NCBI GenBank assembly: GCA_004284765.1
Contig: NQJD01000008.1
Coordinates: 60,001 to 92,000, forward strand
Length of the DNA stretch: 32,000 nucleotides
Origin: Candidatus Electronema aureum
GTDB taxonomy: Bacteria > Desulfobacterota > Desulfobulbia > Desulfobulbales > Desulfobulbaceae
Direction of reading: 5' to 3'
The position numbers and the translations under genes were made by a program. Below the pieces are notes generated by a model that was not told the DNA's origin, did no database searches, and worked only from the letters and a program-made list of their open reading frames with translations. Below, one piece after another: positions 3,978 through 32,000 of the stretch (positions are counted from its first letter, which is position 1; every line of letters begins with the position of its first letter).

Positions 3978-4040
3978 TCACGTTTTCTTTAACTCTCACT
4001 GTCTGAAGCTACCTCCCCACCCTCTCACCGGAGAACGATC

Positions 4041-5445: not shown

Positions 5446-6057
5446 ATGAAAAGAACGATAGGTCTGCCGGTAATAGCTGCATTGTTTTTGCTGACATTAT
5501 GGCCAGCTCCTACGCTGGGGCAGTGGAACATGGGCAAGACGATTAAAGACCTGCTTACCAAACGAGCCGAAGCAAAAGAAGAAAAGAAGAATGCGCAAGA
5601 CCCTAAAAAGACACCAGCTCGTTTCAAGGACACCGGCGATGGTACCTTGACTGACAGTGCCACTGGCTTAATCTGGCTGAAAAATGCCAACTGCCCCGTC
5701 TTTTTCAAGGAAGATACCGCTACCAAGAACAGCCGCAAGTGGACGGATGCACGGGTCGCGGCCAGCCGCTTGGCTCATGGTTTCTGCGGCCTGTCCGATA
5801 GCTCCAAGCAAGGTGACTGGCGACTGCCTGATCGCGAGGAGCTACTCACTGTTGCTAAAGATATCACAGGTAAAGACAAATGGTTGGCTGGCAAAGCCTT
5901 CACCGGCATCCAACCATTCTATTACTGGTCATCCACTGTGGGCGACCTTTACCCAGACTACGCCTTTTATGTCGGCCTTGTCTATGGCATGGATAGCCAT
6001 GCCTTTCAGCTCAACAGCTTCCACGTGCTGCCAGTGCGGGGTAAGAAGAAGCCGTAG
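5446..6057 (+). CDS. Secreted DUF1566 (Lcl C-terminal / C-type-lectin-like fold) domain protein
   Basis: Signal peptide MKRTIGLPVIAALFLLTLWPAPTLG. The family hallmarks I recognise are RFKDTGDGTLTDSATGLIWLKNAN, WRLPDREELL and YYWSST. Confidence 0.8.
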   Translation: MKRTIGLPVIAALFLLTLWPAPTLGQWNMGKTIKDLLTKRAEAKEEKKNAQDPKKTPARFKDTGDGTLTDSATGLIWLKNANCPVFFKEDTATKNSRKWTDARVAASRLAHGFCGLSDSSKQGDWRLPDREELLTVAKDITGKDKWLAGKAFTGIQPFYYWSSTVGDLYPDYAFYVGLVYGMDSHAFQLNSFHVLPVRGKKKP

Positions 6058-10417: not shown

Positions 10418-11695
10418 CTAACGCCTTTTTTTGCTTTTCTTCTTAACCATCACCCGCTTGACTGACTTTCGCACCACGTTCTCCACGCCGCCGTTTTGCA
10501 GTAATGCCAGCACATCGTTGCGCCGATTAGCGGCTTGGTTGAGCAGAATCACATAGGCTTTGCCATCAACAAGATAGCCCGCGTAATTCCAAACTCCTTT
10601 CATACTGCCGGACTTGCTCGGCGTGCCAAGATGCTTGCGCAGCAACCAAGCGTGAGGTCGGAACGCTCGCAGCACTTCCAGCATCGCCCGCGCTGTCACC
10701 CGGTCGCCACGATATAGGCCGGAGCCATCCTTGTGAATAAGAGCAGCAGCGGTTTGCTGGCCGAGCTGTCGCTCCAACTCCTGATGTACAGCCCGATCTG
10801 CCTTGCTCCACGTTGCGGGCCAGCCGAATTCTTCCGCACCAACTGCCAGATAAACCAGATTAGAGATAAAATTGGAGGAGTATTTGAGGAAGGAGGAAGT
10901 CAGTTCCTGCAAGTTCTTGCTGCTGCGGTGCTCGTAGAACAGTTTGACATCAGGCGGCACTTGCTTTAGGCTCAAATGACCTTGGCCGGGAATGCCTGCT
11001 TCCTGCTGGAGAGCACGGAAAAGTTGGGCCGTGTAGCGGGCCATTTCCCGGTTAGCATTGCAGCGGCCCCGGCAGATGTTGATCCGCGTCCACGTGCTAG
11101 GCGGCAGACCCGCCGCCAGCTCTGTCATCAGCGGCAGCAGCGGAGTATGCTCTTCGCCGGACGATACAAAGCCTTCTCGCGTCACCCGCACTGGCACGCT
11201 ATTGAAGTTGACCGCTGTCGGGCCGACCGGCGCGTCATAGGGATTGTCGCTAAACTCGCTGCCCGGCGACTGGTATTCAAGAGCGAAATTAGAGGGATCA
11301 ATGTAGATGGCATTAACCTGCCGCAGGCCGCGCTGCTTGAGTTCGGCGAAAATGAGGCGGATTTCCTCCGAGGTCAGCATGGGGTCGCCGAAACCTTGGA
11401 TATAGAGACCGTCCTCCGCATCTGTGTAGAAACGGGTCTTGAAGCGGTATTCCGGCCCCAGAATGGCCAGCGCGGCCAGCGCGGTCGGCACCTTGAGGAT
11501 GCTGGCCGGGATGTAGGGCGTGTCAATATTGCAGCTCTCGACGATGTTGCCTTGCAGATCGGCGACCGCATACGCGCCGTTCTGAATCAGTCCGGCATAG
11601 GGCGGCGGGCAGTCGGCGGCAAGGGCGTTTTGGCCGACGGCAAGCAGCAGGGTTAAAAAAAGAGGAACTATATTGGAACACATGGTCTTCCGCAT
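10418..11695 (-). CDS. dacB: D-alanyl-D-alanine carboxypeptidase/endopeptidase (PBP4, peptidase S13)
   Basis: Signal peptide, then SxxK (PASILKVPTA), SxN (YSSNFISN) and a KTG-like motif (KSGSMKG). The size is typical for PBP4. The likely start is ATG 11695 (MRKTMCSNIVPLFL). Confidence 0.85.
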   Translation of the reverse strand: MRKTMCSNIVPLFLTLLLAVGQNALAADCPPPYAGLIQNGAYAVADLQGNIVESCNIDTPYIPASILKVPTALAALAILGPEYRFKTRFYTDAEDGLYIQGFGDPMLTSEEIRLIFAELKQRGLRQVNAIYIDPSNFALEYQSPGSEFSDNPYDAPVGPTAVNFNSVPVRVTREGFVSSGEEHTPLLPLMTELAAGLPPSTWTRINICRGRCNANREMARYTAQLFRALQQEAGIPGQGHLSLKQVPPDVKLFYEHRSSKNLQELTSSFLKYSSNFISNLVYLAVGAEEFGWPATWSKADRAVHQELERQLGQQTAAALIHKDGSGLYRGDRVTARAMLEVLRAFRPHAWLLRKHLGTPSKSGSMKGVWNYAGYLVDGKAYVILLNQAANRRNDVLALLQNGGVENVVRKSVKRVMVKKKSKKRR

Positions 11696-11728
11696 GTTCA
11701 ATCACTTGGGCTGAGAACTGCCCTCACG

Positions 11729-12019
11729 TCAGCTGTCAAATCTTTTGAGAGCCATCTTGTACACTTGGCTTTTATCCCGCTTGCCCACAGCGATGACTGC
11801 CACAACCAGCTCTTTGTCGCGCAACTGATAAACAAGACGATATCCGGCTCTGAGAAGTTTGATCTTGTAACAATCCTTCATGCCACTGAGCTGCGCACTT
11901 TGCACCCTCGGTTGCTCAAGCCGTTCTTTGAGTTTCTTGGCAAAGAGCGAACGGACGGTTTCATCCAAGCTGTCCCATTCTTTCTTAGCCTCCTGCTTGA
12001 AGACTAGCTTAAAGGTCAT
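11729..12019 (-). CDS. relE: RelE/StbE-family type II toxin
   Basis: MTFKLVFKQEAKKEWDSLD...FAKKLKERLEQPRV...YKIKLLRAGYRLVYQLRDKELVVAVIAVGKRDKSQVY is a typical RelE/ParE-fold pattern. The ATG at 12019 overlaps the 3' end of the upstream antitoxin gene. Confidence 0.85.
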   Translation of the reverse strand: MTFKLVFKQEAKKEWDSLDETVRSLFAKKLKERLEQPRVQSAQLSGMKDCYKIKLLRAGYRLVYQLRDKELVVAVIAVGKRDKSQVYKMALKRFDS

Positions 12020-12263
12020 CAAGCTTTACCTCAATCTCAGGTTGGCTTTCCCGCCTCCTGACAAGTTCGGCCAGCTCGACATCTTCCAGTCTGTCCAACA
12101 GCATTTCGTAAAGCTCTGCCGGGACTGCATAGAATGCCGGTTCGTCATGATGAAGAATAACAACCGGAGCACCATGTCCCTGCTGAAGCACGGCTAAAGG
12201 ATTTTTCTGTAGTTCGCTTATTCCGGCACTGACATCGGCCAAGATTGAACGTGTGCGAGCCAT
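12009..12263 (-). CDS. Phd/YefM (StbD/RelB-like) type II antitoxin
   Basis: Strong RBS AAGGAGGA. The pattern ISELQKNPLAVLQQGHGAPVVILHHDEPAFYAVPAELYEML is followed by an acidic C-terminus. It overlaps the relE-like gene. Confidence 0.8.
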   Translation of the reverse strand: MARTRSILADVSAGISELQKNPLAVLQQGHGAPVVILHHDEPAFYAVPAELYEMLLDRLEDVELAELVRRRESQPEIEVKLDDL

Positions 12264-12418
12264 GATGAGTTCCTCCTTCGCATCAGATGCGGCATGTTTT
12301 CAAATTGCTGTGGCTACAAGATACAGCGCGGAAGGAAAGGATGCAATCCGGCCAGTCGCTTGCGTTTGAGCAAGCACTTGGAAAAAATAGCAGGATAGTT
12401 ATTTATAAAATATAAAAT

Positions 12419-13525
12419 TTACCATCCTAATAAATTAAACACACATTCGTTTGCACTTACAGCATCTGCCAAGTTGGTTTGAAATTTAAAAAAAGATGAA
12501 AATATGCTACCCCATCCTGCTTCATATGAAATATTTATTTGTTTTCCGCAGAATTGGTATGTCGCAAATGTATTTGCTGCACCTATAAAATTATTAATTA
12601 AAATTACATTTCCTATAAAAGGGAGTCTTGAGAGAGGAAACTTTGTTGAAAAAACAGAAACGGCATCAGAAATACAAGTTATAACTGAGGACATGTCGCA
12701 GTATGCTTCTTTATAGCTCTTTCCAAGATTTCTTTCTCCGCATATTTTATTTAAATATTCGTCAACAACAGGAAATTCTTGAGTAGATGCATTGTATTCT
12801 GTTCCAGAATTTAGCCTGTCTTGGCATTTTTTAAAAAAATCACTACTGTCATCTTGATATATTTCAGAATAATGTATCATTTTAGATAAAACCCCTAACC
12901 ATCCACTCCATTTATACCACGCTTCAGAACATTCTCTATACCATTCTCTATAGCATTGACTGTTTTCGTCAACATGATCACAAAATCTACTTGCGCTTGC
13001 AAGTGAATACAGGTAACTGCCATTGCCTGTATCATATCTGTTAACCTCGCACGCATAAAGCATATCTATATCATGCGTTGTTGTTACGCTGCAATTATTA
13101 ATGAATAATTGCATTATTTCGAAATAATCATCACTCTGTCTTATTAATTTTTCAAAATAGCTTGACATATAATGAGACTCGCAGAAAGAAGTAAGTCTTT
13201 CGATAGATTCGTAATTTTCTTTGTAATTTTGTATGAAAAATTCTTTATTATAATTTAGAACAACTGGAATTCCAGCTACGCGTTTTGATAATGGAAATAT
13301 CAAACAAAAAGAAAGACTTTCTATTTTATTTCTTATTTCTTCTTCTTTTCTTCTTCTCATCTCTTTATCCTTATCGTCAAAAAATGCTGCACCCGCAGAA
13401 GAGACTAATAGGACAAACAGGAAGGCAAGAAAAAATGAGCAGCGGGACAGGAAAGATATAGACCGCAAAGACATGATCATTCTCCAAAAAAGAGTGTTAC
13501 GGAGCGGACAAGCAGGACTTTTCAT
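12419..13525 (-). CDS. Orphan Cys-rich protein with an N-terminal signal or anchor, encoded in a strongly AT-rich island
   Basis: A long ORF lies in a segment (about 12360..13530) whose base composition is far more AT-rich than its flanks. The N-terminal hydrophobic segment is FFLAFLFVLLVSSAGA. The protein has many Cys, Tyr and Asn. I recognise no family. The start is uncertain (M at 13525, or MSLRS about 18 codons in). Confidence 0.6.
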   Translation of the reverse strand: MKSPACPLRNTLFWRMIMSLRSISFLSRCSFFLAFLFVLLVSSAGAAFFDDKDKEMRRRKEEEIRNKIESLSFCLIFPLSKRVAGIPVVLNYNKEFFIQNYKENYESIERLTSFCESHYMSSYFEKLIRQSDDYFEIMQLFINNCSVTTTHDIDMLYACEVNRYDTGNGSYLYSLASASRFCDHVDENSQCYREWYRECSEAWYKWSGWLGVLSKMIHYSEIYQDDSSDFFKKCQDRLNSGTEYNASTQEFPVVDEYLNKICGERNLGKSYKEAYCDMSSVITCISDAVSVFSTKFPLSRLPFIGNVILINNFIGAANTFATYQFCGKQINISYEAGWGSIFSSFFKFQTNLADAVSANECVFNLLGW

Positions 13526-13550
13526 ATCACATTGGCGCGGTTAGGGCAAT

Positions 13551-13587
13551 AAAAAAGGTGCGGCCTTTGCGAGCCTGTACCTTTTTT
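13551..13587 (-). terminator. Possible intrinsic terminator after the radical-SAM gene
   Basis: AAAAAAGGTGCGGC-ctttgcga-GCCTGTACCTTTTTT is an imperfect hairpin flanked by A and T runs, 27 nt downstream of the stop at 13614. Confidence 0.35.
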
Positions 13588-13613
13588 CAGCACGGTAACA
13601 TGGCGTGGGATCC

Positions 13614-16139
13614 CTACGCCTCCCTCACCCCCGCCTTCACAATCCTTACCAACTCCGCCTGCTCGTCCTTCAAGCCAAAGACCGCTGCCAGCACATCCCT
13701 TGGCCCGACACCCGCTTCAGCGCAGGGATGATAGAGATCAAGCAGCAGCCTGCCGCCTTCGCCCAGCTTTAGCTTCCTGACGAACTCCTTCAGATCAAAC
13801 TCACGGCTTTTGCCCTTGCGGCGGCGTGCCAGCAAGAAGCGTTCCGCGACCTGAAAGGCGGCGATGCTGTCTCTTGCCTGCTCGGCATCCACGCCGTCCG
13901 GCAGCAGGCAGTCATAGCTGATGATCTCGTTGACCGGGGCCTTTTTCTTGGCAAAAGCAAGGGCAGTGATGGCCATGAAGCTCGGCAGCTGGCGGTTCAG
14001 CTCGGCCAGCATCTCTGCCGGGCGGCGGATGGGTTCAGCGAGATCAACCTCGAAGAACTCGATCTCGCTTTCCACTCCAACCGGCAAGGCCGGGCTGAAG
14101 GAGACCTTGGGCGTGGGATTGAAGCCCTGCGAGAAGAGCACCGGCAGCCCGGCTCGCTGCAAGGCGCGGAAGACGAGGTTGAGCAGCTCCAGATGACCAA
14201 TGAAGCGGCCATCGCCAAGGCGGGAGTAATCGGCGCGATAGCGGAAAATGGTCGGCTGACTGTTCTTGTCGCGCTCTTGCTTATGAACCGCAGGCGCGGC
14301 GCTTGCTGCTGCCTCCTTTGGCGGATTGACCAACGGCCTGATGCTCTTGAAATCACAGAGGCCGCAGTTCTGGCAACCTTGGTTGCGGCAGTCCGGGGTA
14401 TAGGCGCGCTCTATGGCCCGCTCGTATTCGCGCTCCAAGAAACCGCGGTCAACACCGCTGCTGAGGTGATCCCAGGGCAGGACTTCGCTGCGGTCGCGCT
14501 GGCGCAGGTAGAATTCGAGGTCAATGCCCGCCCGTTCCGCCGCCTGCTGCCAGCGGGCCAGCGAGAAATGCTCGTTCCAGCCGTCGAGCCGCGCTCCGTC
14601 CCGCCATGCCTCTTCCAATAAACGCGAGAGCCTGCGGTCGCCGCGCGAGAACACGCCTTCGAGCAGGCATTGCTCCGGGTCATGCCACTTCAGTTTGTAG
14701 CCCTTGGGCGGCAGCTTCTTCATCAGCCGCTGGATGCGCTCTTTCGACTCATCGAGCGAAATCTGGCCGCACCACTGGAACGGCGTGTGCGGCTTTGGCA
14801 CAAATGTGGAGACGGCCACATTGATGTCCGCCTTCTTGCCGCTCGCCTCACGCCGCGCCCGCGCCGCCAAGTCAACTATCGCGTCCACATCCTCCAGCGT
14901 CTCGGTGGGCAGGCCGATCATGAAATAAAACTTGAGCACGCTCCAGCCTGCATTGAAGGCATCACGGCAGCCAGCGAGCAAGTCGGCCTCGGTGATGCCC
15001 TTGTTGATCACCTCGCGCAGCCGATCAGTGCCTGCTTCCGGCGCGACCGTGAAGCCGGTCTTGCGCACACGCCTGATCTGGGCGATGACCTCCGGCGTGA
15101 GCGTGCCAACGCGCATCGAGGGAAGGGAGATAGAAACGCGCTCCTCGGCAAAGCGGTCCATCAGCTTGGTCAGCAGCTCCGGCAGGCAGGAGTAGTCGCC
15201 AGTGGAGAGCGAGAGCAGGGCCAGCTCGCCAAAGCCGGAGTTCTGAATGCCCTGCTCGGCCAGCTGCATCACCTGCTCGACCGTGCGTTCGCGCACCGGG
15301 CGGTAGATCATCCCGGCCTGGCAGAAGCGGCAGCCGCGTGTGCAGCCCCGCGCAATCTCCACGCCGAGGCGGTCATGCACCGGCTTGACCATCGGCACGA
15401 GTGGGCGTTCGAGCAGCTCGGTCGGCGGCAGTTGGGAAACAATGCGGCGGCGGATTGTTGCATAGCCCGGCTTGAGCGGGAGGACAGCCTTGAGCTGCTG
15501 GCCTTCATACTGTGGCGTAAAGAACGCAGGCACGTACACGCCCTCGATCGCCGCCAGCCGATGCAGCTTTGCGCTGCGGGACAAGCCTTCCTGCTTGGCA
15601 GCACGCAAGGCAGCGGCGATCTCCAGAATCACCTCCTCGCCGTCGCCCAAGACAATGGCATCGAAGAAGTCGGCCAGCGGCTCCGGGTTCATCGAGCAGG
15701 AGCCGCCGCCGATGACCAAGGGCGCGTCCTCGCCGCGCTCTGCCGCCCGCAGCGGAATTTGCGCCAGATCAAGCACGGTGAGGATGTTGCTGAAGCACAG
15801 CTCATAGGGCAGCGTGAAGCCGATGACATCGAAGGCCGCCAAGGGCCGCCGCGACTCCAGCGAGAAGAGCGGCAGCTTGTGGCGGCGGAGCTGCTCCTCC
15901 ATGTCCGTGTCCGGGCAAAAGCAGCGTTCAGCAGCCAAGCCAGGCTCGCGGTTGAGGATATGATAGAGTATCTGCAAGCCTTGGTGCGACGTGCCGATCT
16001 CGTACAAGTCCGGGAAGATGAGCGCGAAGGCGAGATCAACCGCCGCGTAATCAGGCCGCGCCGCGTGCAGCTCGCCGCCGATGTAGCGGCCCGGCTTGCG
16101 CACCAAGGGAAGGATGGAGTCGAGGGAGAGTGTATTCAT
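13614..16139 (-). CDS. B12-binding-domain-type radical SAM protein fused to a DUF2344-like C-terminal domain (TIGR03960/TIGR03936-like)
   Basis: Radical-SAM cluster motif GCTRGCRFCQAG. The N-terminus LPLVRKPGRYIGGELH is typical of this family. At 841 aa it is consistent with the fused form. Confidence 0.88.
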   Translation of the reverse strand: MNTLSLDSILPLVRKPGRYIGGELHAARPDYAAVDLAFALIFPDLYEIGTSHQGLQILYHILNREPGLAAERCFCPDTDMEEQLRRHKLPLFSLESRRPLAAFDVIGFTLPYELCFSNILTVLDLAQIPLRAAERGEDAPLVIGGGSCSMNPEPLADFFDAIVLGDGEEVILEIAAALRAAKQEGLSRSAKLHRLAAIEGVYVPAFFTPQYEGQQLKAVLPLKPGYATIRRRIVSQLPPTELLERPLVPMVKPVHDRLGVEIARGCTRGCRFCQAGMIYRPVRERTVEQVMQLAEQGIQNSGFGELALLSLSTGDYSCLPELLTKLMDRFAEERVSISLPSMRVGTLTPEVIAQIRRVRKTGFTVAPEAGTDRLREVINKGITEADLLAGCRDAFNAGWSVLKFYFMIGLPTETLEDVDAIVDLAARARREASGKKADINVAVSTFVPKPHTPFQWCGQISLDESKERIQRLMKKLPPKGYKLKWHDPEQCLLEGVFSRGDRRLSRLLEEAWRDGARLDGWNEHFSLARWQQAAERAGIDLEFYLRQRDRSEVLPWDHLSSGVDRGFLEREYERAIERAYTPDCRNQGCQNCGLCDFKSIRPLVNPPKEAAASAAPAVHKQERDKNSQPTIFRYRADYSRLGDGRFIGHLELLNLVFRALQRAGLPVLFSQGFNPTPKVSFSPALPVGVESEIEFFEVDLAEPIRRPAEMLAELNRQLPSFMAITALAFAKKKAPVNEIISYDCLLPDGVDAEQARDSIAAFQVAERFLLARRRKGKSREFDLKEFVRKLKLGEGGRLLLDLYHPCAEAGVGPRDVLAAVFGLKDEQAELVRIVKAGVREA

Positions 16140-20418: not shown

Positions 20419-21195
20419 TCATGTTTGTTTGAACTGAGCCAAGGCCGCCTTGAGCATCTCCGCTGTGCCTTCATGTCCTGCGCTGGCAGCAATAAATCCG
20501 CCACGCTGTTGCACTAACTCTATCACCAGCTGCGATGCGCTTCGTAGCGTTAAAGGAAACACGGCATTTCGCAGCAAGGTCAAGTCATCATCTGTATCAC
20601 CTGCGGCGCATCGAATGTAATGGGTTTGCCCAAATGCTGCTTGAAAGGCTGCGTATTTATCCCCAAGTTTAGGGATAAGAGCTATCTTGCGCCTTCCAGC
20701 AATGATCCTGAACTGTTTACCTATAATAGTTGGCAGTTCTGCAATAAAAGCTGCTGCAAACTGTTGTTCTTTGACAGAGTAGAGTAGAACAGACTGATGG
20801 CTTCCTTGATAATATTCTGTGTCAATCGCCAAATTGTGCTGTCGAACTATTTCTTTGATCTGAGCATGAGCAGAAGCAAGATTAACTTCGGATAATACTC
20901 TTTCATTCCAAGCAGGACAGCCGTCAATACGTGTTCCGTGTTCCAATATCCAGCCAGTAATCCGTAAACCAGCAGTAGCAAAATGCGCTCGAAAATCAGC
21001 AGTTGTTGTCATAGACCTGCCTGTTGCAACATAGAGATCGGTTAATTCTGCCAATTCAAGCAGTAGTTCAATGACACGGTAGTCTATGACCGAATCAGTT
21101 GTCCGACCCCGGATAGGTAAACCATCTGGCAGCGGACTATTATGATTTAGAGTTCCATCAAGATCAAAGACAAAAGCTGCTTTTCTTCTTTCCAT
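20419..21195 (-). CDS. HAD-superfamily phosphatase/hydrolase
   Basis: Motif I is FVFDLDGTLNH. A later GD(T)DDD-type motif is CAAGDTDDDLTLL. The gene lies 3 nt downstream of the preceding HAD gene. Confidence 0.8.
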   Translation of the reverse strand: MERRKAAFVFDLDGTLNHNSPLPDGLPIRGRTTDSVIDYRVIELLLELAELTDLYVATGRSMTTTADFRAHFATAGLRITGWILEHGTRIDGCPAWNERVLSEVNLASAHAQIKEIVRQHNLAIDTEYYQGSHQSVLLYSVKEQQFAAAFIAELPTIIGKQFRIIAGRRKIALIPKLGDKYAAFQAAFGQTHYIRCAAGDTDDDLTLLRNAVFPLTLRSASQLVIELVQQRGGFIAASAGHEGTAEMLKAALAQFKQT

Positions 21196-21198
21196 CTT

Positions 21199-21936
21199 TT
21201 AGCTATGATGATCTGCTAATTTGGCATAAGCCCAGCGCAACATATCCTCTGCTGCTGCATGAGCAGTGAAAGGTGAGCAGTAACCGTTTTTTCCTTTTAC
21301 AATCTCTTGTATTTCAGGACAGGCCGTACTCAGCGTAACTGAATGCGTGCTTTTCTGTAGCAGCTGCATATCGTTGAGATCGTTTCCTAAGGAAATGTAT
21401 GGCTCGACATTGAACTGGGCAAGACCAAGCATCTTGTCAGGCATCTGAGGATAGATAAAAATCTTCGGGTGCTGATGACAAACATAACCGTTCTCTTGCG
21501 TTTCCTTTAACAGTTGCTGAACAAGAGCTGCTGGATTTTCATATCTGTTTGGTAGGATAAACCCTACAGAGCTTTCATACCCCAGAATTGGTTCCCAATC
21601 GACAGGAACCTTGTCTGCAAATCGCCATTTTCTTTTGTGTTGGTTTGTACTGCTTATATCAGTTTTGACAATGAAACCATTCTCAAGTACAAACCCGGCA
21701 AAGTGTACTTTTGTAAGCTGATTGGTTATTTTTTCAACGCTAAAGGCATTTCTCCCGGTTGCAATAAAAGTCGGTAGTCGCTGACTGATTTCAGCCAGCA
21801 GCTCAACAGTTTTACCAGAAAGATAGCAATCCCTTGAACGCCCTTTGATGATGTAGGATTCCGGCTCATAATGCAGAAGCGTTCCATCAAGGTCAACAAC
21901 AACTGCTTTGTCGGGATGGCCTTTGCGTATGTCCAT
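21199..21936 (-). CDS. HAD-superfamily phosphatase/hydrolase
   Basis: Motif I is VVVDLDGTLLH, with a conserved ATGRN and a C-terminal GNDLNDMQLL. Its start abuts the stop of the upstream gene (21936/21937). Confidence 0.8.
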   Translation of the reverse strand: MDIRKGHPDKAVVVDLDGTLLHYEPESYIIKGRSRDCYLSGKTVELLAEISQRLPTFIATGRNAFSVEKITNQLTKVHFAGFVLENGFIVKTDISSTNQHKRKWRFADKVPVDWEPILGYESSVGFILPNRYENPAALVQQLLKETQENGYVCHQHPKIFIYPQMPDKMLGLAQFNVEPYISLGNDLNDMQLLQKSTHSVTLSTACPEIQEIVKGKNGYCSPFTAHAAAEDMLRWAYAKLADHHS

Positions 21937-22929
21937 TTATCCGGCAATATGTAAAGAACAGGCAGCACGAGTGCGGTAATTTCGTAAAAATTGCTGATTG
22001 TATTGCACTGGCACCTTGCGCTGATCAGCCAAAGTCAGCAGCAGTGAAAAATGCTCGCGCACATACTGGGCATCATCAACAAAAAACAAAGTGCTGGGCA
22101 AGGCGTTGATCAATGCCCTGCAAACTTCGTTACTGTGCAGACGCAGCTCAGTTTTTTGATAGAATTTTTCGCCGCCACCAAGCGGGAACGCAGCAGGCCG
22201 GGAAGGGCCTGATTGGTACCAAGTGGCAACTAAGTCCTTGCGGACATAGCGTTCTGGAAATGTATAAGCCGCAAAAAAACTTTGCTCATCAATAAAAAAA
22301 GTCCTTGAAAAGCCAAGCGTTGCCAGCCCTGTGAAACAGGCAGAAGGACAGAAAATGTCTTCTTGGCAGCCTGAAAAATCAGCCCAGCCCCAAGGATCAT
22401 TGAGGACAGCCAAAGGCCCTGCACCAAGCCGAGCAAGTTCTCTGGCTACCCCGCCGCGCCCTGTCCAGCCGTCCACGAAAATAATTTTTCGTTCTGGAAA
22501 ATCAGCCTGTAGGCGGGATAAGGCCACGCGGTCGATACCGATACCGACAAAAAGCGACAGAGCCGCTGCAACTGATCCGGGTAGCATTGTGCAGAGCCAT
22601 TGAGCAATCGGAACGCCAGCCCTGAGAATCGCGGCAAAAAGCAGACGCTCTGGCTGCGGCTCCCATTGTATAATCGCCGCTGCGAGCCGTTGCGCCGCTT
22701 CCCGAATCTGCTCATTGTCAATTTCTACTGCCACGGTGTGCCAGAAATCATCATCAAGATCAGGTTCAGGTGAGGGAGCTGACCAAAAGGTATTTTCACC
22801 AGAGTATGCTTGATTCAAGCTGCGAAAACGATGTGGCTCGTCAAAAGGATGAACTTCTTCAAGAAGATTGACGTAGAGATGCTGCTGCCAGATATTTCCT
22901 TCCGCAGAAGGAAGAATCGCCTTGTGCAT
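21937..22929 (-). CDS. Phosphoribosyltransferase-like protein (ComF-like/StiP-N-type PRTase of Ter-associated clusters)
   Basis: KIIFVDGWTGRGGVARELARL resembles the DGWTGKG signature I associate with the PRTase_3/StiP N-terminal family. The operon context with a PRTase_2-like gene and two HAD genes supports the call. The assignment is from memory only. Confidence 0.5.
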   Translation of the reverse strand: MHKAILPSAEGNIWQQHLYVNLLEEVHPFDEPHRFRSLNQAYSGENTFWSAPSPEPDLDDDFWHTVAVEIDNEQIREAAQRLAAAIIQWEPQPERLLFAAILRAGVPIAQWLCTMLPGSVAAALSLFVGIGIDRVALSRLQADFPERKIIFVDGWTGRGGVARELARLGAGPLAVLNDPWGWADFSGCQEDIFCPSACFTGLATLGFSRTFFIDEQSFFAAYTFPERYVRKDLVATWYQSGPSRPAAFPLGGGEKFYQKTELRLHSNEVCRALINALPSTLFFVDDAQYVREHFSLLLTLADQRKVPVQYNQQFLRNYRTRAACSLHIAG

Positions 22930-22949
22930 ATCAAATCGCCACGCAGAGG

Positions 22950-23870
22950 TTATGAAAGCGAAAACTCTTCAACAGTCATCCCCGTTGTTTCTAAATGATC
23001 TTTTACCTTATTGCCGATCTCGTGATCAGCTGGATCGTACAATAGATGTATTGGACTTTTTATACGTTGATAATTGTATAGAAAATAATTGCAAAAATTC
23101 ACCCTGCTTTTGATGTGAATTGTATCCACAGTCCAAGGGCTGAGTGTGATGTGCTGAAATGACCTGAAGACACGGGCAGCAACGAGAAAAACTGCTGTAC
23201 TTACAGCTTCGCCAATCACGAAAAGATGCTCTCCGTAATGTCTCTTGATCAGGTGCTGTTTACCGAGTTCAGCTGCCACGTTTTCTATCATATTTTCAGG
23301 ATAAGATGCTATTATCGTGTTGCTATTTTCTATTTTGTTGCAATATTCAGCTGCGGAACCGTGAATGCCTGCCAAAGAGGCAGCAGAATGAAAAAGATAC
23401 GTTTTTTCTGAGCAGCCAACTAGACGAAAAAAATCATCTTTTTGCAGTTGAGAACGAGAATCAGCAAAGGAAAAAATTCGGAAGATTTTTGCGGAAACAT
23501 GTTTCTGTATCTGGTTGAGTAAATTTTTCACTGTAGTGCCGGAAGTTATTTCATCTTCAACTATCCAAATTTCTTCATAATGACCTTCTGGCAGCGGCAA
23601 AATGTGATGCGGCCCGTGTGAATGAATTTCCTGAAAAGGGATACCTGATACGCCGACGCGGCGGGTGGAACATGTCCAGTTGCACGAAATCTTTCGACGA
23701 AGTGCCTCCATATACATCAAAAATGACGGAACAATACCTGATTCCGTTAGCCCTATCAGTAACACTTCTCCTAAAACTGGCACGTAGTTCGCTGATTCTT
23801 CAAGCAATTGAGCCAAATAGCCGCTTCCCCGCTGAAGATGTGAACAGTCGGCAGGATGCAGTTTTCCCAA
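22950..23870 (-). CDS. Phosphoribosyltransferase (PRTase_2-like) with a C-terminal TRSP-like domain
   Basis: The PRPP-binding loop is EIWIVEDEITSGTTVKNLL. The upstream STRRVGVSGIPFQEIHSHGPHHILPL resembles the F-x-E-x-HSH motif of Ter-associated PRTases. The ORF starts at TTG 23870, so the start is uncertain. Confidence 0.62.
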   Translation of the reverse strand: MGKLHPADCSHLQRGSGYLAQLLEESANYVPVLGEVLLIGLTESGIVPSFLMYMEALRRKISCNWTCSTRRVGVSGIPFQEIHSHGPHHILPLPEGHYEEIWIVEDEITSGTTVKNLLNQIQKHVSAKIFRIFSFADSRSQLQKDDFFRLVGCSEKTYLFHSAASLAGIHGSAAEYCNKIENSNTIIASYPENMIENVAAELGKQHLIKRHYGEHLFVIGEAVSTAVFLVAARVFRSFQHITLSPWTVDTIHIKSRVNFCNYFLYNYQRIKSPIHLLYDPADHEIGNKVKDHLETTGMTVEEFSLS

Positions 23871-23967
23871 GAAAGAAGCGGTGAAGGCTTCTTTTCTTAA
23901 AGGATTGTTGTCTCGCTGAATAAAAAAAAATCACGCATAATTCACCTCAATTGTGTGCGCATTCATC

Positions 23968-24660
23968 TTAGGGTTGCCAGCGATAGCCCATGCCGTATTC
24001 GGAGCGAATGGCGTTAAAAGTTGAATCTACTTCTTGAAATTTATCCCTGATTCTACGAATATGAGCGGCAATAGCATTGTTCGTAACAATTACGCTGGCC
24101 GCTTCCATTAGCTGGTCATGATTTTTGACATGACCGGGTCGCCGGGCTAAACAGAGTAAAATCCAAAATTCAGTCAAGGTTAAGCTGACCGGCAGACTCC
24201 GCCAATGCACTTCCTTGCGGTCTTCATCAATGCGCAGGTTTTGATGCTCGATGATTCGGTTGTTTGTACTGTTGCTACGCAGTGCCTCAACCGTGCGGAA
24301 CAGGGCAGAAATACGGGCCGGCAGAAAGTCTAAGGTAGTAGTGTCTTTGGTCAGATAATCCCAAGCACCAAGCCGCAAGCCAGAGACCCGGTCCACGTCC
24401 GAGTTACGGGCAGTAAGAAAAATGATTGGAATTACCGGCGAAAGAGAGCGCAGATGCTGGCAGAGGTCAAATCCTCCCTCCATTTCCTCGCCGAGCATAA
24501 TGTCTAATACGGCAAGGTCGGGCAGGGAGCGGTCAAAAGCAGCCACAGCTTCCTTGCGGCTGCTGTAGGAGCTGACCTCGTAACCTTCCCGATGCAAAGC
24601 CTGAGCATAATTGGCCTGCAATCTGAGATCGTCTTCGACGAGAGCAATACGGTAGGTCAT
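23968..24660 (-). CDS. OmpR/PhoB-family response regulator (receiver plus winged helix) with no adjacent histidine kinase
   Basis: Receiver motifs are IALVEDD, LAVLDIMLG, IIFLTAR and W.DYLTKD. The C-terminal wHTH reads LTLTEFWILLCLARRPGHV...YGMGYRW. I place the start at ATG 24660 (MTYRIALVEDD). Confidence 0.9.
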   Translation of the reverse strand: MTYRIALVEDDLRLQANYAQALHREGYEVSSYSSRKEAVAAFDRSLPDLAVLDIMLGEEMEGGFDLCQHLRSLSPVIPIIFLTARNSDVDRVSGLRLGAWDYLTKDTTTLDFLPARISALFRTVEALRSNSTNNRIIEHQNLRIDEDRKEVHWRSLPVSLTLTEFWILLCLARRPGHVKNHDQLMEAASVIVTNNAIAAHIRRIRDKFQEVDSTFNAIRSEYGMGYRWQP

Positions 24661-24868
24661 GGCGGCAGTGTGGGTAATGGTCTTTTTCAGCTGAAAATAT
24701 CTGAAACTGTACCAGATATTTTTTTTTTTCACCACTCTGCTTTTTTCTTGTCATAATTCGTCACACTTTTTCTTTAGCAAGTCATGATTCAGCGGCAAAG
24801 CAGTCATGGTCATTACCCAAAATACTCATAGGTAGAAACATGAGATGAAGAACAGATGGAGAACAATC

Positions 24869-26997: not shown

Positions 26998-27182
26998 GAA
27001 AATAAGGGATGCTGCTTATTAACTGAGCGGGGTGCCGAACTTTCTGGTTGGTGCGGGTAGATTTATCCCGCGCCGGAAAGTTGAGAAAAGCCACAGCCGT
27101 CGCGAGGCGGTGTCGGAAAGCCACGGGTCTCCATTTTGGAGACAGCCGGGTTGCCTGCTTCACATATACCAGGGAGGGTATC

Positions 27183-27875
27183 ATGAAAACAACTCAAACA
27201 ACATTAGGAGGAAAATCAAGTTTACAGAAAAGAATGACTGCGCTGGCCGGAATTCTGTTGGCCGCCGCCCTCGGTGCCTGCCAAGCCAAGCCGGAGTCTG
27301 CTCTTTCTGTCCCTCATGCCGACACAGTCAGCAATGCTGATCAAAGCGGCTGGATTTCATTAAGCAATGTGGTGTCGGAAGCTGAAGCGGCCACAGCTGC
27401 TCCTGCCGCCGGTTACGGAGGCAAAGGAACAGTTGATCCGGCAGCAATGGTGGCAGCGCATAATCGTTGGCGGACAAAAGTCGGTGTATCATCCGGACTC
27501 AGGTGGTCGGACAAGCTGGCTGGCGTGGCTCAAGGCTGGGCGAATCAGCTGAAAAACGAAGGCTGCGCTATGTACCACAGCGGCAATGGCTACGGTGAGA
27601 ACATTTACAAAGCCAGCGCACTGATGTGGTCGGATGGTCGTCGCGATTTACAGAAGAAAACACCGCAGCAGGTCACGGACAGCTGGGGCAGCGAAATCAA
27701 ATTCTACGATTACGAGAGCAACAGCTGTAGCGGAGTCTGTGGTCATTACACCCAAGTAGTGTGGAAAAACACCCAAGAAGTCGGCTGCGCCATGTCGGTC
27801 TGTGGCGACAATTCGCAAATTTGGGTATGCAGTTACTATCCCGCAGGCAACGTAGTTGGTCGCAAACCGTACTGA
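27183..27875 (+). CDS. CAP/SCP/PR-1 superfamily lipoprotein, paralog 1
   Basis: RBS GGGAGGG. The lipobox is LAAALGAC. CAP motifs are AAHNRWRTKVGV, GYGENIY, HYTQVVWKNTQEVGCA and VCSYYPAGNVVG. Confidence 0.85.
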   Translation: MKTTQTTLGGKSSLQKRMTALAGILLAAALGACQAKPESALSVPHADTVSNADQSGWISLSNVVSEAEAATAAPAAGYGGKGTVDPAAMVAAHNRWRTKVGVSSGLRWSDKLAGVAQGWANQLKNEGCAMYHSGNGYGENIYKASALMWSDGRRDLQKKTPQQVTDSWGSEIKFYDYESNSCSGVCGHYTQVVWKNTQEVGCAMSVCGDNSQIWVCSYYPAGNVVGRKPY

Positions 27876-28045: not shown

Positions 28046-28672
28046 ATGATCACAAAGAAAACATTGAGCATTCTCCCTTCATCTTTTTTTCTCTCTATCT
28101 TCTGTCTTGCTGCCTGCGGCCAAACCCAGACCATCCGCGTGGATGTGTCTGCCGATCATCCTGACGGCGTTGTGCTGTTAGATGGGTATTATGAAGAAAC
28201 TGATACCTTTGCCGAAGGAGTAGGCACGGTTGATTCGACCGTGATGCTGGCCACCCACAACCGCTGGCGTTCTGAAGTCGGCGTTCCTGATCTCGTTTGG
28301 TCGGAATCTTTAGCCCAAGCTGCACAAAGTTGGGCTGATCATCTGAGCAACAACGGCTGCTGCGCTATGTCTCACAGCGACAGCGGCTATGGCGAAAATA
28401 TTTACAAAGTCAGTGCCGTGGTTTGGTCGAACGGTCGCCGGGAAATTCAGAGCAGAAGTCCGCAGCAGATCGTTGACGGCTGGGCCAGTGAAGCCAAGGA
28501 CTATGATTACGAAAACAACACCTGCAACGGCATTTGCGGTCATTACACTCAAATAGTCTGGCGTGACACCACAGAAATAGGTTGTGCAGTTGCCGTTTGC
28601 CCGGATAAATCGCAGATGTTGGTCTGCAATTACGCGCCGACTGGCAATGTTGAAGGGCAAAAACCGTATTGA
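28046..28672 (+). CDS. CAP/SCP/PR-1 superfamily lipoprotein, paralog 2
   Basis: The lipobox is SIFCLAAC. CAP motifs are ATHNRWRSEVGV, GYGENIY, HYTQIVWRDTTEIGCA and VCNYAPTGNVEG. It is collinear with 27183..27875. Confidence 0.85.
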   Translation: MITKKTLSILPSSFFLSIFCLAACGQTQTIRVDVSADHPDGVVLLDGYYEETDTFAEGVGTVDSTVMLATHNRWRSEVGVPDLVWSESLAQAAQSWADHLSNNGCCAMSHSDSGYGENIYKVSAVVWSNGRREIQSRSPQQIVDGWASEAKDYDYENNTCNGICGHYTQIVWRDTTEIGCAVAVCPDKSQMLVCNYAPTGNVEGQKPY

Positions 28673-28868: not shown

Positions 28869-28897
28869 TTGATAAACTTGCCGCTTCGTGCTACAAT
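28869..28897 (+). promoter_or_regulatory. Putative sigma70-type promoter of the AAA+/FGE-domain operon
   Basis: TTGATA (28869..28874), a 17-nt spacer, then TACAAT (28892..28897), about 90 nt upstream of the ATG at 28988, which has the RBS AAGGTGGA. Confidence 0.5.
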
Positions 28898-28987
28898 CTT
28901 TGTTCAGGCGGCTGCCACAAATCTGCGAGCCGCGCAAAACAAAACGTAATGTTTTCAATAAGAAAGCCGCCGAAAGGTGGATGAGAT

Positions 28988-30247
28988 ATGAACAGCAGTC
29001 ATCATATACCCAAAAAAATCCGCGTAGCTCATCGGATCAAACTCGAGCGCTGCCAATCATGGGAGGAAGGCTTCCATGTTTTTGATGAGGAATCTGCCTT
29101 GGCTGTTGAAATGGCCTTGGCCACAGGTAGGCCCTTGTTGGTGCGTGGCGAGCCGGGCAGTGGCAAAAGCCAGCTGGCCCGCGCTGCGGCCCAAGAACTG
29201 AACCGCCGTTTCATCAGCGAGGTAATCACCTCTACCACTGAAGGCCAAAACCTGCTCTGGCACTACGATCCGGTGGCCCGCTTTCATGAGGCACAGATGT
29301 TGGCAGCAGAAGCAGCAGCCACGGCTCTTCGGCAGGAGAATTGGGAAGAGGATAACCAGGCTGATTCTGAAGAGATACCATCTGTTCCGCCGCAGCCAGA
29401 GGCTTTGAGTCGGAAAAAATCTATCCGCTATAAAAAGAAAAAAATCCTTCCGCAAAAACGGCAGCATCTGTTTCAAGCAATCAGTGCTGGTGCAGGCCGA
29501 GGCTTTTTGCCGGATCGAGGTAGTGCAGACCTGCATCCGGGCAACAGCATAAGTCCCGGCCCTTTCTGGTGGGCGATTGACTGCGTTTCCGCTCGGCAGC
29601 AGATCGGGCGATGCCGTTGGCCCTTGTATCAGCCGGGCTTTGATCTTGGCTTTTCGCTCGAAGAAGCGGCAGCGCAAGCTCAACGGGGCTTTGTTTTTCT
29701 GATCGACGAGATCGACAAGGCTGATTCTTCTCTCCCTAATGCTCTGCTGGAAGTGTTGGGCAACGGTGGCTTCCACGTGCCGTTGCTCAATCAGACGGTG
29801 CGAGTGCCGCCCGGCTTTGCTTCACCGTTGGTGATTATCACCACGAACGAAGAGCGCGAGCTACCGCCCGCCTTTGTCCGCCGCTGTTTGGTGCTGCATC
29901 TCCGCTTTGATGATGAACATTATTTACGTACGTGGTGGAATCGGCAAGTAACGCAGCGGGCCGATCAGTTTCATCCTGACCGGGCCTTAGTCAAGTGGTT
30001 AGCCGAGCGCGGCGAACTGCATTTTGAACACGTTTTTTCCGTCAGAGTCCGAGAAAAAGCAGCCGAGCTGCTGGTGCGTGATCGGCGTGAGGCGCAACAG
30101 GCTGGGTTGATCAAACCGGGCCAAGCGGAATATTTAGATTTGCTTCGGGCGTTGCGGAATATGGCGGCGGCGAGCAGCGAGCAGCAACAGCTCGCCTTGC
30201 TGGAGCAAATCAGTCCCTACGTTTTCATCAAAGAAGCGCAGGAATGA
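28988..30247 (+). CDS. MoxR-like AAA+ ATPase (AAA_5/dynein-related type) with an unusually long Walker A to Walker B linker
   Basis: Walker A is GEPGSGKS (aa 54-61). Walker B is FVFLIDEIDKAD (about aa 235-246). Sensor/arginine-finger context is PLVIITTNEERELPPAFVRRCLVLHL. WHYDPVARF and PGPFWWAID resemble MoxR proteins of vWA-MoxR-type conflict systems as I remember them. The roughly 175-aa linker contains acidic and Lys-rich low-complexity segments. Confidence 0.8.
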   Translation: MNSSHHIPKKIRVAHRIKLERCQSWEEGFHVFDEESALAVEMALATGRPLLVRGEPGSGKSQLARAAAQELNRRFISEVITSTTEGQNLLWHYDPVARFHEAQMLAAEAAATALRQENWEEDNQADSEEIPSVPPQPEALSRKKSIRYKKKKILPQKRQHLFQAISAGAGRGFLPDRGSADLHPGNSISPGPFWWAIDCVSARQQIGRCRWPLYQPGFDLGFSLEEAAAQAQRGFVFLIDEIDKADSSLPNALLEVLGNGGFHVPLLNQTVRVPPGFASPLVIITTNEERELPPAFVRRCLVLHLRFDDEHYLRTWWNRQVTQRADQFHPDRALVKWLAERGELHFEHVFSVRVREKAAELLVRDRREAQQAGLIKPGQAEYLDLLRALRNMAAASSEQQQLALLEQISPYVFIKEAQE

Positions 30248-32000
30248 GCAGACCGCAGACCGTTAGCCGAGCTGATCTGCTTCGTCTGCTTGCTGCACAG
30301 CCGGACGTATCGCTACCCGCAGCCGCTCGACTGGCTGGGTATCAGCCAGCAAGAGAGCCGTCGGGTACGTTGCAAGCGCAAGAAAAAACAGCAGACCAAG
30401 AAGCAAGCTACGAAACCGAACCTGCGGCAAGAAAGGAACTTTTTCCTGCTGAACACTTCTGGCATTTACAGAGACGCGAGCAGCTTCAGTCTGCGCAGAA
30501 CCGTAGAAAAGGCAGTGAATTGCCTGCCAACCTGCGCCAGTTTCGTCCTTTGAGGGCAAAGGAATTGCAGTGTTCTGCTTCATCAACAAACCACCCTACC
30601 CTGCTGCCCCTGCCCGTTCGCAAAAAAACAACTGTATCTGAGTTAGTTACTGCTGCTGCGCAATTTCGGCCTTTACCACGCAATTTCGAGAATACGCCTA
30701 TCCAGCCTGTGCAAAAATCTGCTGCCGCTTTTGCGCTGGATATGCTGCGAGCCGGTCAGAATTCCGTTTGGTTAGAACAATTTTTGCTCCGCCTTGTCCG
30801 CACTTGGTTTGATCGTCGGAAAGATGCTACGTTGCTCGCTTACATTAAGCACGTGCTGGAGTTTCTGCCAGAAACAGTCTATCGGCAGCATGATATTGCC
30901 AGCTTGCTTTACGGTATCGCTCACCGAGATATGCTGCGGCAGGGCGCAGTCATTCCGCCGCAATTTCGGCCTGAAGCAGTGTTGCAGATCGCGCAAGAAC
31001 CGCTGCCGTCTTTGCCTTGGCTGCTGATTCAAGAAGGCGAAGAGATTTTTCTTATCAACAGCCCGGAAACAGGCATTTGTCTGCTGAAAGGCAGCCGCAT
31101 AGCCGCGTTAGAATTAAGTGCGGACATTCTCCTGCTGCATCGTGACGGACAGACAGAAACTGTGCCGGTGCAAACGTGGCAAGCTCTCTGCGCTTTGAAT
31201 GATGCAGAAAACTTTTACCTTCAGACCTTGACCGAAAAGCTGCACATTCACACTTGCGCCCGACCGACGTGGGCAACGATGATCGGGAGAAATAGCCGCG
31301 AACTCTTTGCCGAAATTCTCTGGTTGGGCCGCAGCTATCGTCTGTACTGGCAGACACCGAGTGCCGATGCTGACGACATCGGGCAGTGGAAAAACTGCCA
31401 CGGCCCGGTCGATACCGACCGCTTTGGCCTTGCCGCCTATATTGGCTTTTACGGCAAAGTGATGCAGCGGTTCCGCTGGTTAGAGCCAAGCCGCTTTCTC
31501 ATGGGTTCACCAGAAGATGAGCCAGAGCGGGAGGCTTGGGGGAAGGAGACGCTGCACGAGGTGCGATTGAGTAAGGGCTTCTGGTTCGCTGACACCGTTG
31601 TCACCCAAGAGCTGTGGCAATTCGTGATGCGTAGCGATAATCCGGCGAAATTTCAAGGTCACGAGCTACCGGTTGAGAATGTAAGCTGGTTGGAGGTGCA
31701 GCATTTTCTTCAGCGGCTTAATGCGATGGTGCCGGGCCTCAACGCCCGTCTGCCCACCGAAGCAGAATGGGAGTATGCCTGTCGGACAGGTACAACCACG
31801 CCCTTTTCTTTTGGCAGTCAAATCACGCCAGAGCAGGTCAATTATCACGGCGCATTTCCTTATTGTTCCGGACAGAAGGGGATAAATCGCAGGCAGACAG
31901 TGCCGGTGAAAAGTCTGCCTGCCAATGCTTGGGGCTTGTATGAAATGCACGGCAATCTCTGGGAATGGTGCCAAGATTGGTGGTTAGACGATTTAGGCCA
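30244..32000 (+). CDS. Large protein (over 585 aa, 3' end outside the window) ending in an FGE-sulfatase (SUMF1/EgtB/PvdO-type, C-type-lectin fold) domain
   Basis: I translated this by hand because it is absent from the ORF track; there is no in-window stop. ATG 30244 overlaps the upstream stop (ATGA). The frame is open to 32000. The C-terminal part reads FLMGSPEDEPEREAWGKETLHEVRLSKGFWFADTVVTQELWQFVM...PVENVSWLEVQHFLQRLN...RLPTEAEWEYACRTGTTTPFSFG...NAWGLYEMHGNLWEWCQDWW, a clear FGE-sulfatase signature. I do not recognise the N-terminal 430 aa or so; it has no vWA MIDAS motif. Confidence 0.82.
   Translation, partial: MSRPQTVSRADLLRLLAAQPDVSLPAAARLAGYQPAREPSGTLQAQEKTADQEASYETEPAARKELFPAEHFWHLQRREQLQSAQNRRKGSELPANLRQFRPLRAKELQCSASSTNHPTLLPLPVRKKTTVSELVTAAAQFRPLPRNFENTPIQPVQKSAAAFALDMLRAGQNSVWLEQFLLRLVRTWFDRRKDATLLAYIKHVLEFLPETVYRQHDIASLLYGIAHRDMLRQGAVIPPQFRPEAVLQIAQEPLPSLPWLLIQEGEEIFLINSPETGICLLKGSRIAALELSADILLLHRDGQTETVPVQTWQALCALNDAENFYLQTLTEKLHIHTCARPTWATMIGRNSRELFAEILWLGRSYRLYWQTPSADADDIGQWKNCHGPVDTDRFGLAAYIGFYGKVMQRFRWLEPSRFLMGSPEDEPEREAWGKETLHEVRLSKGFWFADTVVTQELWQFVMRSDNPAKFQGHELPVENVSWLEVQHFLQRLNAMVPGLNARLPTEAEWEYACRTGTTTPFSFGSQITPEQVNYHGAFPYCSGQKGINRRQTVPVKSLPANAWGLYEMHGNLWEWCQDWWLDDLG

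Follow-up and report, generated by a model that had tools for sequence, protein, structure and literature searches.

The closest described counterparts of the locus considered here are the iSTAND ternary systems, which are predicted conflict systems in which a MoxR ATPase without terminal extensions is joined by a CoxE-type vWA protein, whose variable C-terminus is most often an FGS domain, and by a third protein bearing TIR, peptidase, or adaptor heads (Kaur, Burroughs, Iyer & Aravind, eLife, 2020; PMC7159879, section 20). These systems are concentrated in proteobacteria, cyanobacteria, and bacteroidetes of multicellular habit, and a "neutralising" mode of binding has been suggested for their FGS domains (Kaur et al., 2020; PMC7159879). 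The combination of a MoxR-like ATPase, a C-type-lectin-fold (CLec) protein whose N-terminal extension is long, and a short protein consisting of CLec only has also been described already (Doré et al., 2024, PNAS; PMC10907252). A locus of this kind lies at the 3' end of a 32,000-nt stretch of DNA (contig NQJD01000008.1, positions 60,001 to 92,000; hereafter, the window) from Candidatus Electronema aureum, a multicellular freshwater cable bacterium. The original prediction, made from the letters of the window, had proposed a two-gene core of a MoxR-like AAA+ ATPase and an FGE-domain protein as a candidate conflict system that was not known to have been characterised experimentally. Our analysis shows the core to be larger, i.e., a three-gene operon consisting of an AAA+ ATPase, a "long" FGE/CLec protein, and a "short" FGE-only paralog, the last of which became visible on extension of the contig. 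An ancestry of this cassette among conflict systems is supported by its homology and conserved gene order with iSTAND-type cassettes, from which it differs by having lost the vWA domain, the upstream effector gene, and the diversity-generating retroelement (DGR).

As in the iSTAND systems, the gene after that of the MoxR-like ATPase in Electronema encodes a protein with an FGS/CLec domain at its C-terminus, and the multicellularity of the host is likewise shared. However, the Electronema locus has no vWA, no third (effector) component, and no transmembrane segments, and it adds a separate, short FGS-only gene as well as a low-complexity insert in the ATPase. Relatives of the cassette outside the cable bacteria do carry a third component with TIR, trypsin, or other heads, together with a CoxE-type vWA-like domain. 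The gene architecture is also that of DGR reverse transcriptase (RT) clade 5A (the Thiohalocapsa PB-PSB1 DGR 8 type; PMC10907252), and two homologous loci in our collection, L010 and L027, have an RT. In contrast, Electronema lacks the RT, accessory gene, and template repeat, its CLec C-termini are conserved rather than hypervariable, its N-terminal extension is shorter than typical, and no Trypco, TIR, or peptidase genes adjoin it. Thus, the novelty originally attributed to a vWA-less MoxR and FGE core stands only in part, since the genes number three, the architecture has been published, and the absence of the vWA is derived; on the other side, no experimental test appeared in the papers found. 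The kind of system is already known from comparative genomics, and what is new is the vWA-less, effector-less, non-diversifying form. To our knowledge, no MoxR-centred ternary system of multicellular bacteria has been tested experimentally, literature searches having returned comparative genomics only, and no paper was found in which cable bacteria are connected with DGRs, MoxR, or FGE-domain proteins.

Organisation and conservation of the cassette

The part of the locus that lies beyond the window was read from the 2.94-Mb chromosome of Ca. Electronema aureum (OW818638.1; GCA_942492785.1), where it constitutes locus L001. The ATPase gene (28,988-30,247, + strand), recognised as an open reading frame (ORF) and by Pfam, encodes an AAA_5/MoxR-like protein of 419 residues, and its TGA (30,245-30,247) overlaps the ATG of the long gene (30,244-30,246) as ATGA. 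The long gene (30,244-32,000, + strand; ORF and extended contig) is truncated by the window, inside which it runs for 585 codons up to the last nucleotide. Both ORFs and their coupling are therefore as originally described. The full product of the long gene has 670 residues, with a stop at window-equivalent position 32,256, i.e., 256 nt past the window, and the short gene, which encodes 255 residues comprising an FGE-sulfatase domain alone, begins 2 nt after that stop.

The promoter proposed for the operon is present as a sigma-70-type site (TTGATA-17-TACAAT; 28,869-28,897, + strand) with a TG-extended -10 and 10 of 12 matches. Since five promoter-like sites were seen in the region versus 2.2 expected, the site by itself is weak evidence. 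Four Electronema-type loci (L001, L090, L004, and L005) keep a block containing it, ...CTTTCCTTTGATAAAC-TGC-GC--CGTGCTAcAAT, upstream of the ATPase gene, in contrast to the surrounding DNA, and the genes upstream of the block are unrelated among the four. From these features of the DNA, the trio is probably co-transcribed and translationally coupled.

A search with the N-terminal 404 residues of the long protein returned only 17 proteins, 50-89% identical and all of cable-bacterial or metagenomic origin. When complete they measure ~650-677 residues, all of them end in an FGE domain, and those from named hosts come from Ca. Electronema. In each of the five distinct cable-bacterial loci examined (L001, E. 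aureum; L004, Ca. Electronema sp. PJ; L005 and L090, metagenomic relatives; L009, Ca. Electrothrix communis), the genes of the trio kept this order, overlapped or abutted one another, and had intact ORFs, whereas the flanking genes differed among all five. Synteny in other genomes had been set as a test of the original prediction, and wherever orthologs were found the pair was indeed syntenic and coupled. Comparison of L001 with L090 gave ratios of nonsynonymous to synonymous substitution rates (dN/dS) of 0.135 (ATPase gene), 0.106 (long gene), and 0.119 (short gene), values that are approximate because dS, at 0.7-1.5, is near saturation. All three genes of the cassette are under purifying selection.

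Two tandem, paralogous CAP-domain genes (cysteine-rich secretory protein family; 27,048-27,875 and 28,046-28,672, + strand) lie immediately 5' of the cassette, to which they do not belong, since the other cable-bacterial loci lack them. On the 3' side of the cassette in L001 (14,244-16,894 and 17,189-19,757) are nifE/N-like (Oxidored_nitro) and NifB-like (Radical_SAM and Nitro_FeMo-Co) genes, followed by IS630, IS200-Y1, and DDE transposase genes that are bracketed by 113-nt inverted repeats (89% complementary). The nifEN/NifB-like genes adjoin the cassette in E. aureum only, and a functional tie to them was rejected because the flanks differ in other genomes.

The wider family and the components lost in Electronema

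Relatives of the cassette were found by a scan of species-representative genomes, followed by ORF and hidden Markov model (HMM) analysis. The order ATPase, long FGE, short FGE recurred in no fewer than 13 additional loci from many phyla, including Contendobacter, Thiothrix, Nitrosomonas, Accumulibacter, Lysobacterales, a Lamellibrachia symbiont, and Algibacillus, as well as Verrucomicrobia, Holophagae, Planctomycetaceae, Isosphaeraceae, Polyangiaceae, Oceanospirillum, and a gammaproteobacterial metagenome-assembled genome (MAG). In every such relative examined, an upstream gene for ~460-770 residues abuts or nearly abuts the ATPase gene. Of the 12 such proteins scanned, ten had a TIR, trypsin, PNP, TCAD9, or Metallophos head. 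By locus, the N-terminal heads were TIR or SEFIR in L012, L013, L017, L021, and L035, trypsin-like in L008, L014, and L015, and PNP_UDP, TCAD9, and Metallophos in L010, L016, and L007, respectively. A C-terminal domain of ~250 residues, a candidate for the published iSTAND domain, is common to eight of these upstream proteins. Neither the window nor the cable-bacterial loci L001-L009 contained a match to an HMM of this shared domain, and Pfam searches of the called genes of L090 revealed no effector gene beside the cassette there.

The long protein of Electronema is also reduced. Those of the relatives typically have 860-1080 residues, relative to which the Electronema N-terminal extension is ~270-330 residues shorter. 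A profile of the Electronema domain that precedes the FGE domain (the pre-FGE domain, residues 161-399) was searched against 1.84 billion proteins and retrieved 73 representative clusters, mostly of 900-1000 residues with the domain at about residues 450-660. What the relatives have in addition is a middle region of ~330 residues, for which neither a Pfam scan of nine member sequences nor a profile search against the PDB gave a match. In Streptomyces, Sorangium, and Anaerolineales, stand-alone ORFs of ~330 residues that lie directly 3' of the ATPase gene are homologous to this region (1e-20 to 1e-30). Moreover, alignment of the region by hhalign to 28 CoxE-like vWA ORFs of other fetched loci (5 of them Pfam-confirmed) had a probability of 84% and an E-value of 7.5e-6 over 155 columns, with the DxSxS and GD columns of the metal ion-dependent adhesion site (MIDAS) in register and the MIDAS residues mostly degenerate. 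The middle region is thus probably a divergent CoxE-type vWA domain. Its profile had no match in the Electronema long protein, where only a 75-residue linker is present, and Electrothrix keeps only the helical tail. The locus is accordingly without a vWA, as had been claimed, and by these comparisons of sequence the absence is not typical of the family but arose by loss. Retained family-wide in long proteins are a pair of N-terminal motifs, the pre-FGE domain, and the FGE domain.

Some of the fetched loci are built differently. In L030, L033, L036, L022, and L028 (Streptomyces, Sorangium, Anaerolineales, and Actinomycetospora), the ATPase gene is followed by the stand-alone vWA-like ORF of ~330 residues and then by a giant protein of 1300-1950 residues with CHAT or AAA_16/TPR/PNP/SLOG domains; presumably, these are other types of ternary system. 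In L013, from a Thiothrix MAG, the 1077-residue long protein (10,989-14,222) contains a TIR-like segment (residues 660-767) between the pre-FGE region and the FGE domain, additional to the TIR head on the upstream gene.

The Electronema ATPase matches Pfam AAA_5 at 1.7e-14 (54.5 bits against a cut-off of 22), and the solved sequences nearest to it are the AAA modules of midasin (~1e-6). It falls short of the Pfam gathering threshold, 27 bits in each case, for both AAA_3 (14 bits) and bpMoxR (20.5 bits), which makes "MoxR-like" a loose label. Walker A (GEPGSGKS, residues 54-61; 29,147-29,170, + strand), Walker B (FVFLIDE, residues 235-241; 29,690-29,710, + strand), the sensor-1 Asn, and the arginine finger are all intact. 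Across 22 homologs, Walker A G54-K60 (G54, E55, P56, G57, G59, and K60), Walker B D240/E241, N287, and R298/R299 are invariant. The ATPase is probably active, as judged from these residues. The distance of ~175 residues between Walker A and Walker B, noted in the original prediction along with its acidic and KKKK stretches, was confirmed; it includes a low-complexity insert of ~60-90 residues, placed by homolog alignment between Walker A and the PG-LWW block (about residues 104-185; 29,297-29,542, + strand). The insert is poorly conserved among three cable-bacterial orthologs and is specific to cable bacteria, since the ATPases of relatives (320-350 residues) lack these columns.

Relatives of the ATPase number in the thousands, and it is closer to those of the cassette clade (1e-80 to 1e-160) than to CoxD-like ATPases (only ~1e-41 to 1e-47); the CoxD/CoxE-like loci L040-L089 from the same scan are distant relatives. 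Pairs of a MoxR chaperone and a vWA protein (CbbQ-CbbO, NorQ-NorD, CoxD-CoxE, and RavA-ViaA) share with Electronema an AAA_5/MoxR-like ATPase just upstream of a presumed adaptor, but Electronema has neither a vWA/MIDAS adaptor nor a client enzyme operon. A housekeeping MoxR of the CbbQ/NorQ/CoxD type, whose identification with a normal partner nearby would have told against the original prediction, was rejected, because there is no vWA ORF at the locus, the flanks differ in every genome, and no client operon is conserved. The top NCBIfam match of the ATPase was "MadB family AAA-type ATPase" (NF047784; 1e-19), at 70.7 bits versus a cut-off of 475. In the anti-phage models of PADLOC-DB, the ATPase had only P-loop-level matches (mad8, 8e-6, residues 36-124) and the long protein had none. 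The MadB and mad8 labels, both sub-threshold, were not adopted, and literature searches did not trace the system to which MadB belongs.

Lectin-fold domains and the question of diversification

The N-terminus of the long protein carries two short motifs in a poorly ordered region (30,262-30,480, + strand), VSRADLLRLLA...LAGY and then FWHL, which emerged from the comparison of homologs. In the family-wide form (V/I)SRADLLRLL...LGY, followed 30-60 residues on by F(W/Y)(H/R)(L/V), they are common to long proteins of Gammaproteobacteria, Verrucomicrobia, Holophagae, and Planctomycetes. The predicted structure has short helices at residues 9-30 and a strand at residues 71-80, with low to moderate confidence (pLDDT), and a reading of the SRADLL region as the "4-helical CoxE N-domain" was not supported (hhalign probability 0.2%). 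Next is the family-specific pre-FGE domain (residues 161-415; 30,724-31,488, + strand), a helical bundle followed by a beta-rich part, which is homologous to the pre-FGE region of Electrothrix (39% identity), Oceanospirillum (3e-10), and the gammaproteobacterial MAG (2e-5). Modelled alone with AlphaFold2, this domain reached a pLDDT of 77.7 and had no significant neighbour in the PDB or BFVD (best E-values, 0.39 and 3e-3; TM-score <0.25); the model of all 585 residues was poor (pLDDT 52), and Foldseek gave no neighbour for it in the PDB. Pfam found no match in residues 1-414, in agreement with the earlier remark that the first ~430 residues resembled nothing recognisable.

The remainder is an FGE-sulfatase/C-type-lectin-fold domain (residues 416 to ~640, cut by the window at residue 585; 31,489-32,000, + strand), also as claimed, with a Pfam score of 5.9e-31 for residues 415-580. 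Among solved structures, human FGE is the best match (2e-25), followed by TvpA of Treponema denticola (2y3c; 1e-21), PvdO, and PorK. The fold is the same as that of human SUMF1/FGE (1y1e) and bacterial FGE (2q17 and 6muj), but the copper-binding cysteines of the enzyme are gone from the long protein, and the gene context includes no sulfatase. Aligned to human FGE, with GGSYMCHRSYCYRYRC paired to GGSWFLGGK---GVRS, the long protein has Leu in place of Cys336 and lacks the segment bearing Cys341; the short paralog retains the first catalytic Cys only. No metal-binding or catalytic residues were identified in the FGE domain by alignment to solved structures, Pfam found no DinB-type domain in residues 1-414, and scores for the EgtB, OvoA, SenA, and PvdO equivalogs of NCBIfam were far under their cut-offs (EgtB, 31 bits versus 360). 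Since the catalytic Cys are lost, DinB is missing, and equivalog scores are below cut-off, we regard the domain as a non-catalytic C-type-lectin-fold module. A catalytic FGE or EgtB enzyme, i.e., the sulfatase-maturating or ergothioneine-type protein that would have spoken against the original prediction, was rejected because both catalytic Cys and a DinB domain are missing. TvpA is similar to the Electronema domain in being non-catalytic, with a presumed ligand surface at its C-terminus; it differs as a DGR-diversified lipoprotein, the Electronema proteins being undiversified, coupled to an AAA+ ATPase, and without a visible signal peptide.

Beyond the FGE domain, cable-bacterial long proteins have a tail of 35-50 residues, in which a Pro/Ala-rich linker varies and a basic-hydrophobic end (SFLRRIFGKN, SFLRWLFGRK, and LLNWLWRWRK) is conserved. 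It is located at 13,170-13,266 of L001 (window-equivalent 32,157-32,253) and is also present in L004, L005, and L009. The tail could be a docking or membrane-binding peptide.

FGE-type targets of DGRs are mutagenised in a C-terminal variable repeat (VR). The VR-equivalent segment of the long protein, RGGSWFLGGKGVRSAVRGRFAP-FRNDRIGFRIA, is nearly invariant in the 17 orthologs, whose N-terminal parts share only 50-60% identity, and its dN/dS of 0.041, at a dS of ~1.6, is the lowest of the gene. The original prediction had supposed that the window stops short of the place where a DGR variable repeat would be and had proposed a search further along the contig for a template repeat (TR) and an RT. 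Neither idea was borne out, as the gene ends 256 nt on with a conserved C-terminus, and no RT was found within 29 kb upstream or 10 kb downstream of the cassette (39 kb). Sliding-window and blastn searches of L001 and L009 detected no third, template-like copy of the repeat. The FGE domains of the long and short genes are paralogs with 73-80% DNA identity, and they differ by indels and at synonymous sites in constant codons; because of these differences, one template would not serve both. A DGR in cis was therefore rejected, the two copies being paralogs and not a TR/VR pair. The cassette also has no shared 3' flank or initiation-of-mutagenic-homing (IMH)-like repeat, unlike L007, L015, L016, L018, and L035. 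Since the VR-equivalent segment is nearly invariant, with a dN/dS of ~0.04, DGR diversification is not happening at this locus.

The related locus L010 (Ca. Contendobacter) served as a positive control. In L010, as in L027, an RT gene lies between the two FGE genes, and a 77-nt repeat of L010 is 92% identical to the C-terminal stretch of the long gene, with five of the six mismatches at adenines of the non-coding copy. In L015, L016, L018, and L035, the long gene agrees with the short gene at 83-88% of its last 120 nt. L007, which comes from a gammaproteobacterial MAG, has a 94-nt repeat (11,636-11,729 and 12,744-12,837; 87% identical) common to the 3' ends of its long and short genes and extending past their stops, and the C-terminus of its long gene (~11,600-11,701) contains unresolved bases, translated as X; a DGR-variable region would leave both traces when assembled from a metagenome.

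A proposed reduced conflict module and its alternatives

Considering the family as a whole, we think the odds are somewhat in favour of the cassette being a reduced descendant of iSTAND-type MoxR-vWA ternary systems that is still a conflict module, reduced to sensing or sequestering. In such a module, a hexamer of the ATPase would engage the long protein, most likely through the N-terminal SRADLL/FWHL motifs or the pre-FGE domain, where the contact is placed because the vWA domain is gone, and ATP hydrolysis would drive remodelling of the long protein or of its bound partner. The two CLec domains would be non-enzymatic binders of one fixed ligand instead of diversifying receptors. Since no effector is encoded in cis, the module would either sequester its ligand ("neutralising" binding) or signal to a partner whose gene lies elsewhere. 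For the same reason, "conflict system" refers here to ancestry, not to a demonstrated present function, and the original prediction of a candidate conflict system is upheld to that extent by the published context and by relatives with TIR or trypsin effectors and with DGRs.

Several points weigh against this interpretation. Loss of the effector, vWA, and DGR could mean that the module no longer works in conflict, and the contact between ATPase and long protein, the ligand, and the output are all inferred. The absence of effector, RT, and vWA partner applies to 29 kb upstream and 10 kb downstream in a genome of 2.94 Mb. In addition, the assignment of the vWA in relatives comes from a single profile-profile alignment (the 84% match), was missed by Pfam and PDB profiles, and involves a degenerate MIDAS, and the whole-gene estimates of selection are subject to the near-saturation of dS given above.

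An alternative that we consider possible, if rather doubtful, is that the trio was recruited to a non-defence, housekeeping role after losing its effector, vWA, and DGR. It would be, for example, a MoxR-type chaperone and adaptor acting on a conserved endogenous target or a sensor of a fixed metabolite or envelope component. MoxR ATPases such as CbbQ, NorQ, and CoxD act elsewhere as maturation chaperones, and occurrence of the cassette throughout Electronema and Electrothrix, together with the lineage-specific ATPase insert that suggests vertical descent, would fit such a role, as would strong purifying selection on a frozen binding surface and the lack of an effector in cis. However, the context of the cassette differs in every genome, so that no conserved metabolic or structural neighbour points to a client; all recognisable relatives reside in conflict-type loci, and the FGE domain has no identified metal-binding or catalytic residues. 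A more tentative suggestion, which we hold to be unlikely as a whole, is that an immune ternary system was domesticated into a minimal AAA+-lectin machine. In it, the frozen CLec domain would replace the vWA/MIDAS domain as the adaptor by which the ATPase binds its target, and the short CLec protein would be a co-receptor or regulator. The machine would have a lineage-specific role, in watching for a conserved invader, in recognition of self or damage at the level of the filament, or on a conserved endogenous client, without a killing effector or hypermutation.

Two further explanations have very little to recommend them. If the cassette were a decaying, non-functional remnant of a conflict system, as the lack of three usual family components (vWA domain, effector gene, and DGR) might suggest, one would not expect intact ORFs in every locus, conserved coupling and promoter, a dN/dS of ~0.1, and invariant catalytic residues in the ATPase, and we consider this highly improbable. 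Equally improbable is continued diversification of both CLec genes by an RT and template repeat encoded in trans: relatives are DGR targets (L010 and L027; Doré et al., 2024), template repeats can sit elsewhere in the genome (Kaur et al., 2020; PMC7159879), and several codons at variable positions end in C or T, but no other part of the long gene is as well conserved in the 17 orthologs as the VR-equivalent segment, and the synonymous and indel differences between the two copies, the lack of a shared 3' flank or IMH-like repeat, and the 39 kb without an RT all argue against it.

Two other loci were noticed in the window. The first, at 512-6,057 (+ strand), is a co-directional cassette that begins with genes for a TPR protein (512-1,201) and a caspase-domain protein (1,198-2,517; Peptidase_C14, 9e-23), the start of the latter overlapping the stop of the former. 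It continues with three ORFs without a Pfam match (2,537-3,232, 3,252-3,977, and 4,041-5,108), ends with a gene for an Lcl_C-domain protein (5,446-6,057), and may be a separate, caspase-centred locus of the conflict type. The second (20,419-24,735, - strand) is a StiP/PRTase cluster, in which genes for two HAD-like hydrolases, StiP (PF11202), and PRTase_2 (PF15609) stand in a row with a response regulator gene adjoining.

For the biology of cable bacteria, the finding amounts to a conserved, lineage-wide cassette, in which purifying selection is strongest on the very CLec surface that relatives hypermutate. DGR-diversified receptors can become fixed and be held under strong purifying selection. 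For the family, clade-5A DGR targets have been described with an N-terminal extension lacking predicted domains, in which two are probably concealed, a divergent CoxE-type vWA domain and the family-specific pre-FGE domain. As the simplest natural version encountered in this analysis, the Electronema cassette could show how its ATPase acts on the CLec protein and to what the CLec domain binds.

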